Shown here: piece after piece, positions 36,869 through 39,538 of the stretch
Layout of the letters: each line of letters opens with the position of its first letter
How positions within the stretch are numbered: position 1 is the first letter of the stretch
Assembly: GCA_964016885.1 (NCBI GenBank)
Contig: OZ024765.1
Location: forward strand, 6,138,001-6,202,000
From: Eledone cirrhosa
Lineage: Eukaryota
Reading direction: 5' to 3'
Length of the DNA stretch: 64,000 bases
The notes under the pieces: model-generated
Databases searched by the model: none
What the model was told of the DNA's origin: nothing
What the model saw: only the letters and a program-made list of their open reading frames with translations
Position numbers and translations under genes: made by a program

Positions 36869-37250
36869 CTGGGAAATACATAGAGGATAATAATTATTTC
36901 TTTAAGAGGAAGAAGAAGAATATATATATATATATATATAAGCAAAAGGGATATTCAATTTGTTGGTAATTCAACAAATATAAATGTTTATAACTGATTT
37001 AGAGCACTCAACAGTTTACTGGAGTAAATATTCAATGATATTTAATAAATAGAAACTATATTTATTCTATTATATATATTTCAAGGGTATCAAATCTTTG
37101 GTACGCTTTCATCAGATAAAATACAAAGTTTGTTTTATAAATTTTGACATATCCAAGAAAAGATACCTTACCGGTTCACTATCCAAGAAAAACTTGAACC
37201 AGTAAGATATCTTTTCTTGGATATGTCAAAAATTTATAAAACAAACTTTG

Positions 37251-37311
37251 TATTTTATCTGATGAAAGAGTACCAAAGTTTTGGTACCCTTGAAATATAT
37301 ATAATAGAATA
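37251..37311 (+). ncRNA. minimal hammerhead motif, AT-rich family (mirror copy 37063-37123 on minus)
   Basis: TATTTTAT-CTGATGA-AAG.GTACCAAA/TTTGGTAC.CTT-GAAA-TATATA-TA^ATAGAATA. Confidence 0.72.
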
Positions 37312-37458
37312 AATATGGTTTTATAAATATAGTTTCCATTTATTAAATATCATTGTATATATATATATTTATATAGAAGTGGTTACACAACAGTTAGTTC
37401 ACCATACCGAGAACAATTATTTTACCTTAGCAGATCCTCAGCTCGTAATGTCCATTAC

Positions 37459-37494
37459 GAGCTGAGGATCCGCTAAGGTGAAACAATTGTTCTC
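37459..37494 (+). ncRNA. minimal hammerhead motif, third family
   Basis: GAG-CTGAGGA-tCCgctaaGGt-GAAA-CAATTG-TT^CTC; palindromic stem III. Confidence 0.65.
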
Positions 37495-37730
37495 AGTATG
37501 GTGAACTAACTGTTGTGTAACCACTTCTACCTAACTCGTTCCATGGACTGAGTGCTCTACCACTACGAATATTACCTTCCAGTGTTCTACCACTATATAT
37601 ACAGTGCGTTCTGTTATTAATTCTGGCAATATAACACAAATATGACCCTCCCCAAGTATAACAATATATATATATATATATATATATTATTCAAAATGTT
37701 AACAAATGAAAAATATTCTCAAACAAAATA

Positions 37731-37797
37731 TATATTTTATTATACATATTTCAAAGGTACAATGGTGTTTAAGTACGTTTTCATCAGACAAAATATA
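37731..37797 (-). ncRNA. minimal hammerhead motif, unpaired, in the pre-mRNA sense
   Basis: TATATTTTGT-CTGATGA-AAA.GTAC/GTAC.TTT-GAAA-TATGTA-TA^ATAAAATATA. Confidence 0.68.
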
Positions 37798-38423
37798 TGA
37801 TTTGATATTTTCCATTTGTTAACATTTTGAATAATATTAAAAACTCCATGAAAATCATTTGTTGAGTGCTTCTAATCTATTGTAATATTGCATTCATTGA
37901 GTAATCAACAAACCATACTAATCTTTGGTTATATATATATTTATGTATGTGTGTTGTGTGTCAGTACTTACTTCCTTAGTTTCTGAACCAAATGTCTGTC
38001 AGTGTGTGACTGTATGTGTATGTATGTATGTATGTGTCAGTATATATATATGTGTGTCAGTGTATATATGTATATATATATATATATCACGATAAATTAA
38101 CGGAGGCATAGGCCGTCGTTATTCCCTGTAAATAATGTGCTCAAAGGGGAAGAGATCCTGAGCCCTTTAAAATATAATATGTTGAGAAGGTAACACACCA
38201 GAGAGAGATATATAGTGCGCTATCAATAATACAGGGAAAAAAACTTGTATTATTGATAGCGCACTATATATCTCTCTCTGGTCTGTTACCTTCTCAACAT
38301 ATTATATTTTATATATATATATATATATATATGTATGTAAAAGGTAAACAGAAATAACAACACAATCGGTACAGTATATGGAAGGTATATATTAGGTTTA
38401 CGCTTGATAAAGCAGGAAGAGGG

Positions 38424-38459
38424 TCTTAACGTTTCGGACACTAATCCTTCATCAGAAGA
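38424..38459 (-). ncRNA. minimal hammerhead motif, fourth family (degenerate relative at 58883-58914, minus)
   Basis: TCTT-CTGATGA-aGGAttagtgTCC-GAAA-CG-TT^AAGA. Confidence 0.62.
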
Positions 38460-39138
38460 AAGAATGAGAAATAAAATAGATTGAGGGGACGGGCGGGTTG
38501 GAATTGGAAAAAATGTCTTTAGATAAAAATATATATGTGTGTGTCAGTGTATATGTGTATGTGTATATATATATATATATATATATATATATATATATAT
38601 ATATATATATATACATATATATATATATATATATATATATATATATATATATATATATATATATATCAGTATGTCAGTACTGACTTCATCTACTTGTGTG
38701 TATGAATGTATGTATGTGTCTGAATATATATATATATATAGTAATAATAATAAATGTGAAGACTAAAATCCGTTAAGGGTGAAAGCAGTAATTCTTTGCT
38801 TAAATTTTAATCTGCTATTTTAATAAATATATATATATATATACATGGAAAGTTATATTTAAATTGTTGGGTTAACAACGAGTAAATATTTATAACTGAT
38901 ATAAAAGCACTCAACAAGTATTTGGAGTATATTTATGATATTAAATAAATGGAAACTATATTTATAAAACCATATTTATTTCGTTATATATATTTCAGGG
39001 ATATCATATTAACAATATGTTATGCCATCTTCAGACAAAATACAATATAAACAGTCTTATAAATAAATAGATACGACATACCTGCAAGGTGATTGAAAGG
39101 TATGTCGTATCTATTTATTTATAAGACTGTTTATATTG

Positions 39139-39204
39139 TATTTTGTCTGAAGATGGCATAACATATTGTTAATATGATATCCCTGAAATATATATAACGA
39201 AATA
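39139..39204 (+). ncRNA. minimal hammerhead motif, AT-rich family (mirror copy 38977-39042 on minus)
   Basis: TATTTTGT-CTGAAGA-stem II-GAAA-TATATA-TA^ACGAAATA. Confidence 0.68.
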
Positions 39205-39283
39205 AATATGGTTTTATAAATATAGTTTCCATTTATTTAATATCGTTGTATATATATATATATATGTGTGTTTTAATATAGAA

Positions 39284-39336
39284 AAGCTTCTACAGGACTA
39301 GAACTGTTTCATTCGTGAGAAATCATCAGGAAGCTT
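39284..39336 (-). ncRNA. type I hammerhead motif, mirror copy in the erg pre-mRNA sense
   Basis: left arm of the 39269-39398 palindrome; differs only in loop II (tcac). Confidence 0.8.
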
Positions 39337-39383
39337 CCTGATGATTTCTCCCGAATGAAACAGTTCTAGTCCTGTAGAAGCTT
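39331..39383 (+). ncRNA. type I hammerhead ribozyme motif (complete)
   Basis: AAGCTTC-CTGATGA-TTTC tccc GAAT-GAAA-CAG ttctagtc CTG-TA^GAAGCTT; three stems and GUA cleavage triplet. Confidence 0.8.
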
Positions 39384-39538
39384 TTCTATATTAAAACATT
39401 TATACTCTGCTATGTATTGAGTACCTTACTTACCGTGGTAACCCCCGATTCAACCAGGAATAACTTATATATATGTGTGTGTGTGTGTGTGTGTGTGTGT
39501 GTGTGTGTGTGTGTGTGTGTGTGTGTGTGAGTACTTAC

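Follow-up and report, generated by a model that had tools for sequence, protein, structure and literature searches.

In this study, we analysed a 64,000-nucleotide stretch of Eledone cirrhosa DNA (GCA_964016885.1, contig OZ024765.1, positions 6,138,001 to 6,202,000; hereafter the window), the minus strand of which carries an erg/KCNH2-type potassium channel gene; erg is expressed in neurons. One intron of this gene, 36869-39538, holds a cluster of hammerhead ribozyme motifs. Our results indicate that young, 5'-truncated Penelope-like element (PLE) insertions, at least seven in number, are quite probably nested in (TA)n runs of this intron, and that the pre-mRNA likely carries their hammerheads as inert passengers. 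Families A, B and D of the repeats described below were linked to PLE open reading frames (ORFs), and families F and G are likely PLEs as well. Positions are those of the window, and the literature identified by accession is cited for part of its text.

Hammerhead motifs and insertions in the intron

We searched with a descriptor that required CUGANGA, stem II, GAAA, stem III, UH and stem I, and named each motif by its C3 coordinate and strand; an earlier note, made from the sequence alone, had given the low ends of the same motifs. The results showed nine type I hammerheads in the intron, five of them on the pre-mRNA (sense) strand (39329-, 39034-, 38455-, 37787- and 37115-) and four on the other (37259+, 37462+, 39147+ and 39338+). 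A tenth copy, 37441-, was found by homology; it has lost GAAA, and with it the intact core. In the controls, the descriptor matched nowhere among 300 dinucleotide-shuffled introns and once among 20 shuffled windows. The nine motifs, four families and five sense copies that the earlier note had read were confirmed. It had also counted about six more in the other 61 kb, several of them degenerate, where we found two intact motifs (17135- and 17302+) and three decayed homologues (5995+, 9733+ and 49756+). The nine motifs are not independent, because they lie in six insertions, four of which are fold-back palindromes with one motif per strand (Table 1).

Table 1 Positions of the insertions, exons and A-to-G differences in the window
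Feature	Position	Strand	Remarks
Exon S1-S3 (upstream), erg/KCNH2-like	39539..39973	-	Donor end ...GATGAA|GTAAGT exact; 5' end approximate (tblastn)
Intron in S3-S4 linker	36869..39538	-	Phase 0, GT-AG; 18 (TA)>=4 runs
Exon S4-S6 (downstream), hERG-like	36469..36868	-	E 5e-60
Insertion F	39272..39466		65-bp fold-back + tail; hammerheads 39329- (sense, predicted locked), 39338+
Insertion A2, Hydra-type family A	38843..39248		Perfect 147-bp fold-back + tail; hammerheads 39034- (sense, predicted locked), 39147+
Short end fragment of another dispersed repeat	38740..38825		This copy without hammerhead
Insertion D, 3' end of putative Neptune-type PLE, 5'-truncated	38339..38530	-	Single minimal hammerhead, C3 38455
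Insertion G, piece of ~540-bp, often tandem, hammerhead-bearing repeat	38088..38311		66-bp fold-back; hammerhead itself not included
Insertion A3, family A	37688..37931	-	Single hammerhead, C3 37787, palindromic stem III; predicted cut after 37741
Short end fragment of another dispersed repeat	37600..37665		
Insertion B, Hydra-type	37376..37597		82-bp fold-back + tail; hammerhead 37462+, sense copy 37441- without GAAA
Insertion A1, Hydra-type family A	36929..37355		~150-bp fold-back + 100-nt tail; hammerheads 37115- (sense, predicted locked), 37259+
A>G, GAC>GGC, Asp>Gly at hERG D540 equivalent	36798	-	X4 contig
A>G, synonymous	36614	-	X4 contig
A>G, Thr>Ala, N-E-T sequon removed	36613	-	X4 contig
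A>G, Lys>Arg at hERG K608 equivalent	36591	-	X4 contig
Fold-back of family A, hammerheads 17135- and 17302+ intact	17016-17411		In downstream intron of same gene

Other genomic loci that we fetched matched 96% of the bases of the intron. The nearest relatives of the copies in it were 95-100% identical and dispersed elsewhere in the genome; the insertions thus look young, all four motif families appearing to be young dispersed repeats. The hammerhead of insertion F has a real 4-bp stem III and a U10.1-U11.1 mismatch. Motif 38455- belongs to the sole D copy in the window, has a loopless stem III and is predicted to cut after 38428. Motif 37787-, with its 11-bp stem I, is separated from the downstream 3' splice site by 918 nt. 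The base of the A1 hairpin is about 160 nt from the same splice site.

The Rfam models gave no hammerhead family among 44 matches to the intron at E<=10, and none among the 150 of 198 matches listed for the window, which were hairpin-driven and of miRNA type only. The identification therefore rests on the descriptor, covariation and PLE context. In family A, 8 of 19 pairs changed on both sides, 6 of these in stem II, and 95.6% of cells were paired against at most 62% in slid controls; the sample comprised 18 hand-picked copies, and related sequences inflate the shuffle test. The stem III variants of this family (UAUAUA, UAUGUA and UGCGCA) were all self-complementary, as expected for dimer-type ribozymes. 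An R10.1-Y11.1 pair was present in D and most A copies, with U-U in its place in B, F and A2, a variant known among natural hammerheads (PMC3088659).

Parent elements of the motif families

The PLE origin proposed in the earlier note was borne out for families A, B and D by linkage to ORFs with reverse transcriptase (RT) and GIY-YIG endonuclease. Copies of family A were 5'-truncated at varied points, often with an inverted copy, and had a tail of about 100 nt on one side. Longer copies (L072, L073, L074 and L026) carried an RT (DKT, YHDD) and a CxCX5C-linker endonuclease upstream, 1.0-1.4 kb before the hammerhead. In both A and B, the RT was followed by a C-terminal GIY-YIG endonuclease, as judged from motifs and homologues (P0001-P0003), and the CxCX5C linker was present and CCHH absent in L072 and L074 (A) and in L080, L118 and L122 (B). 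The CxxC flank that belongs to the same set of Hydra-clade features was also found, and the CxH flank was clear in B and decayed in the A copies examined. DKT was seen in L073 and one N-terminus (L026) had RWR, not RWK; the B loci are too short to show either. Insertion in (TA)n, 5' truncation, an inverted copy and an optional tail were all seen in both families, which appear to share most of the Hydra-clade features tested. Among 30 endonuclease-anchored loci of family B, 27 had a hammerhead: 11 carried an intact sense copy by the descriptor, 168-187 nt past the ORF, and 16 a copy judged decayed or cut by reading the sequence, leaving 3 with none. A Hydra-type endonuclease protein query gave 50,368 first-look candidates in the genome.

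Family D copies L139, L143 and L145 ran into an RT (YIDD), a CX4CxxC linker and a GIY-YIG endonuclease. This family is probably a Neptune-type PLE, having the CX2-5CxxC and CCHH-type GIY-YIG features common to Neptune/Nematis-type elements. The terminal anatomy of family F was PLE-like, and no RT-endonuclease ORF was linked to it in L075 (simple repeats only) or in L161, where a decayed helicase-bearing element, which we take to be Helitron-like, lies between two F copies (L161:700-3400). Family G (L156, L157; G000:C1:184086500-184088266) consists of head-to-tail units of about 540 bp, 99-100% identical, each with a long-stem-III hammerhead, and resembles a retrozyme or tandem pseudo-long terminal repeat (pLTR) of very recent origin.

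A further observation concerns near copies of insertion F (L097-L106), most of which have their fold-back point at one shared AAGCTT palindrome, immediately 5' of the core. This suggests recurrent self-priming at that point or a self-propagating palindromic mini-element, in a set of copies that the query favoured.

Density of insertions

We counted exact patterns in the genome and obtained 50,831 for A, 3,542 for B, 3,369 for D and 3,547 for one F subfamily, with 0 in reversed-pattern controls. In 39 stretches of unselected DNA fixed in advance (389.8 kb), 30 motifs were found (77 per Mb; shuffled control 1), and the 200 kb flanking the window held 21 (shuffled control 0). The load thus ranged from 77 to 105 per Mb, in at least 11 recurrent families; the value of 77 per Mb extrapolates to about 230,000 motifs in the 3.0-Gb genome.

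Insertion events were counted per bin by homology to the recurrent families only, leaving out satellite and TA-rich entries of a library that includes motifs from the sampled stretches themselves. Among 236 unselected bins of 2.5 kb, 188 had no event, 39 had one, 8 had two and 1 had four. The 61 bins without (TA)>=4 runs had none, and TA-rich bins had a mean of about 0.4. The intron, with 6 events in 2.67 kb, is a true local outlier: the probability of at least 6 events per bin was 3e-7 under a Poisson and 5e-5 under a negative binomial distribution, and a rough extrapolation gives about 60 six-event bins genome-wide. The local hotspot claimed in the earlier note was thus upheld, and an equal density per (TA)n, which would have spoken against it, was not seen, because 6 events stand against the 0.4 expected from TA content. 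Clustering of these elements is nonetheless general and not unique to the intron. Thirty-eight loci anchored on one element (118.5 kb) held 21 further events, about three times background, under a merge rule that slightly undercounts; L100 had 6 motifs in 1.1 kb and L092 had 5.

These observations are compatible with a mechanism in which each insertion would bring fresh TA-rich target, so that clusters would enlarge as new elements insert into older ones or next to them. A purified Anolis PLE favours AT-rich DNA (PMC11167929). On our explanation, insertion of a PLE would also often place a truncated copy in inverted orientation on the 5' side of the direct one.

Predicted folding of the sense motifs

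We folded the sense motifs with 300 nt of upstream context, as an equilibrium prediction. In isolation, the active fold cost 3-5 kcal/mol. In context, the cost was 73 kcal/mol for 39329-, 87 for 39034- and 64 for 37115- (range 64-100), the F motif being locked by 73-75 kcal/mol. Because the fold-backs are head-to-head, whichever strand is transcribed yields the antisense arm ahead of the ribozyme. Of the five sense motifs, three (39329-, 39034- and 37115-) are accordingly predicted to be sequestered, pairing with this earlier arm during their own transcription. In B, the sense copy is mutated as well, having lost GAAA. An upstream antisense copy stood beside 24 of 51 motifs in unselected DNA, and such muzzling is therefore common.

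For the two sense motifs that are free, 38455- and 37787-, the cost in context was 4-8 kcal/mol. With a stem III that is palindromic or lacks a loop, each would depend on another ribozyme that is itself free; the stem III duplexes are worth only about 2 kcal/mol, and the double-hammerhead form did not emerge when dimers were folded without constraints. A free partner appears to be missing, since the window has no second D copy and the family A partners are predicted to be locked. Single minimal hammerhead ribozymes (min-HHRs) show no cleavage and dimers low cleavage (PMC4209133). The 37787- motif of A3 is our best candidate for residual cleavage, and residual or protein-assisted cleavage may occur at 37741. 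The pre-mRNA would likely form five long hairpins (65-150 bp) and be spliced with little or no self-cleavage.

The earlier note had proposed that self-cleavage could affect splicing or output of the channel. Regulation by self-cleavage is unlikely on these predictions, because antisense arms lock three of the five sense motifs, the other two are of dimer type and need a partner, and the spliced-looking contig described below spans the next exon. The copies, being 95-100% identical to dispersed ones, also give no sign of locus-specific conservation.

Channel gene, spliced-looking contig and A-to-G differences

The exon downstream of the intron aligned to hERG 519-648 (E 5e-60) and was 95% identical to a protein cluster containing cuttlefish KCNH7. 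The acceptor position was identical in a genomic ORF of this cluster (P0125), so that the splitting of the voltage sensor by the intron, stressed in the earlier note, has no special meaning; human KCNH2 presumably has an intron at the same position. A side observation in the intron was a 90% copy of the last codons of the upstream exon with its GTAAGT donor (37955-37993, minus strand), and a more decayed trace at about 38670-38690. An AG lies 24 nt upstream of the copy, so that an in-frame microexon of 8 codons would be possible, but without a pyrimidine tract; no counterpart was found among the other fetched loci.

We compared the stretch 36461-38010 with sequencing runs. A contig of 2,140 nt from run X4, which is not recorded as RNA, aligned over precisely 36469-36868 and nowhere beyond either splice site, as expected of a spliced mRNA. 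It looks like a mature message using the acceptor beside the cluster; a contig gives no expression level. Runs X1-X3 did not cover this exon, and no contig in the runs spanned the whole stretch, so the local order of the insertions is without independent confirmation.

The contig differed from the genomic exon at four positions, all four of them A>G on the mRNA strand (Table 1). At the position equivalent to hERG D540, 105 of the 120 best homologues had Asp and 1 had Gly, with 14 unmatched by the pattern. In the cuttlefish cluster (15 listed of 40 members), Gly was present in 11 of 13 full-length Logan proteins, whereas a genome-derived model and a genomic exon ORF had Asp. The Asp>Gly change is therefore likely A-to-I editing shared across coleoids, and likely older than the intron insertions, as far as these comparisons go. 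The same cluster has a second variable site, an Asn>Ser change just after S5 (WYAIGN/S) in 3 of the 13 (P0009, P0129 and P0132), which fits A-to-I editing.

The neighbouring exon thus appears to be recoded in two coleoid lineages at a residue that shapes gating kinetics; D540 substitutions change the activation and deactivation rates of hERG (PMC3280985). We did not find this erg edit of cephalopods in the literature, and the supplements available of PMC4384741 and PMC8382921 have no KCNH rows; it may be tabulated already.

Alternative explanations

One alternative is that the motifs arose by chance in low-complexity, AT-rich sequence or through a faulty assembly; it would fit an AT-rich region in which the Rfam hammerhead models are silent. 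We give this explanation next to no weight: the chance-match reading was refuted by the absence of matches in 300 shuffles, the thousands of exact copies, the covariation and the linkage to PLE ORFs. A second alternative is that at least one of the sense ribozymes, 37787- being the likeliest, cuts some nascent transcripts, perhaps through trans dimers or with the element protein, and tunes channel output in the manner of CPEB3. It can point to intact cores, to the compensatory covariation of family A, to the long stem I of 37787- ahead of the 3' splice site, to the monomer-type stem III of family F, and to the CPEB3 intronic ribozyme as a precedent (PMC10274809). Yet the covariation reflects selection in the transposon and not at this locus, the F motif is itself predicted to be locked, the free motifs have only their weak stem III duplexes, and similar copies exist in tens of thousands genome-wide. 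We regard it as very improbable.

An editing role of the hairpins is also unlikely, although it is more plausible than regulation by cleavage. On this explanation, the PLE fold-backs matter as hairpins and not through catalysis, by recruiting ADAR and raising editing of the S4-S6 exon in cis. It draws on the five predicted near-perfect hairpins, on the A at the D540 equivalent lying about 230 nt from the base of the A1 hairpin, on the four A>G differences, and on inverted Alus in primates, which induce editing several hundred nt off (PMC4053975). Against it, the Asp>Gly change in the cuttlefish proteins likely predates the young insertions, and a search of 30,000-45,000 for sequence complementary to the exon gave no candidate that outscored the shuffled controls. 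Since about half of the hammerhead copies in the genome sit in such hairpins, the proximity of one to this exon means little by itself. The broadest form of the idea is that Hydra-type PLEs seeded about 200,000 hammerheads, about half of them self-silenced, and that their fold-backs act genome-wide as ADAR-recruiting intronic double-stranded RNAs that raise or extend the recoding of the erg S4-S6 exon, Asp>Gly included; we hold it as an outside chance. If true, the link from hairpins to ADAR would tie transposon debris to RNA recoding on the cephalopod scale.

Several points weigh against our own explanation, a nest of PLE insertions with inert hammerheads. Feed-forward targeting into TA runs and the AT-rich ends of earlier insertions is our inference. 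The cluster is extreme, the fullest of the unselected bins having 4 events against its 6 and TA content alone giving about 0.4. Searches of Pfam and the PDB with the PLE ORFs gave no significant family, and the clade calls therefore rest on motifs. The X4 sample may differ from this assembly in its intron insertions. Both single motifs lie on the pre-mRNA strand, only 4-8 kcal/mol off the active fold, and an Anolis PLE hammerhead cleaved in vitro when assayed together with its protein (PMC11167929). As a channel regulator, the cluster is probably ordinary transposon debris.

Comparison with known systems

Families A and B resemble Hydra-clade PLEs (Craig et al. 2021, PMC8557442) in the C-terminal GIY-YIG endonuclease, CxCX5C linker, DKT (seen in A), lack of CCHH and hammerhead near the 3' end. 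They also resemble them in targeting (TA)n, in being truncated at the 5' end and in having an inverted copy and, in some cases, a tail. Hydra-1_Obim from Octopus bimaculoides is listed there with a (TA)n preference. That source gives a small number of families, whereas here copies matching the hammerhead pattern exceed 50,000 for family A alone. The tail of this family is about 100 nt against 30-40 in Hydra-clade PLEs, and 1.0-1.4 kb separate its hammerhead from the ORF upstream.

Family D is similar to the Neptune/Nematis-type min-HHRs (Cervera and De la Pena 2014, PMC4209133) in its extra nucleotide after A9, G10.1-C11.1, 4-bp stem I and absence of loop III, and it shares RT, CX4CxxC linker and GIY-YIG endonuclease with Neptune/Nematis-type PLEs. 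Pairs of opposite-strand hammerheads 100-700 bp apart have been described before in the same source; the part of it cited here does not discuss sequestration by an antisense arm. It gives about 2,000-9,000 min-HHRs per genome against the roughly 230,000 extrapolated here, with different descriptors.

Non-LTR retrozymes (bioRxiv 10.64898/2026.07.22.740005) carry type I hammerheads from PLE termini, and the tandem units of family G, with one hammerhead each, are alike. The intron copies are single or inverted fragments, unlike the head-to-tail arrays of retrozymes, which were found for G elsewhere. As the intron copies are not head-to-tail, no release of monomers is possible. In frogs, retrozymes are depleted from introns (same source). 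The load of 77-105 per Mb is far above the per-genome counts of two publications, which reach 9,000 for min-HHRs (PMC4209133) and 14,255 for retrozymes (bioRxiv 10.64898/2026.07.22.740005), and insertion as fold-backs is a simple possible reason why this genome tolerates so many intronic ribozymes. We found no study of octopus hammerheads in the literature, and the word is absent from the parts at hand of two cephalopod repeat papers (PMC13282606 and PMC8967140).

The CPEB3 ribozyme (PMC10274809) is likewise a self-cleaving intronic motif whose host gene is active in neurons. It is HDV-like (hepatitis delta virus), highly conserved in mammals and active as tested, whereas the intron motifs described here appear young, are multi-copy and are predicted to be locked; we see no evidence of an exaptation like that of CPEB3. 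Inverted-Alu editing inducers (PMC4053975) place long intronic double-stranded RNA of young retroelements beside an edited exon, as here. Unlike in that case, the main edit is common to cuttlefish, and induction by the hairpins is hypothetical.

Other features of the window

An open RT frame of 753 amino acids, which we take to be RTE-like, was found at 60253-62514 on the plus strand, with similar fragments at 10537-10851, 31504-32067 and 36008-36295. Two long inverted repeats (30082-30375 and 41411-41496) had no hammerhead match and are likely similar to miniature inverted-repeat transposable elements. Two tRNA-like Rfam matches of about 31-33 bits on the minus strand (56074-56131 and 58281-58344) are likely heads of short interspersed elements.

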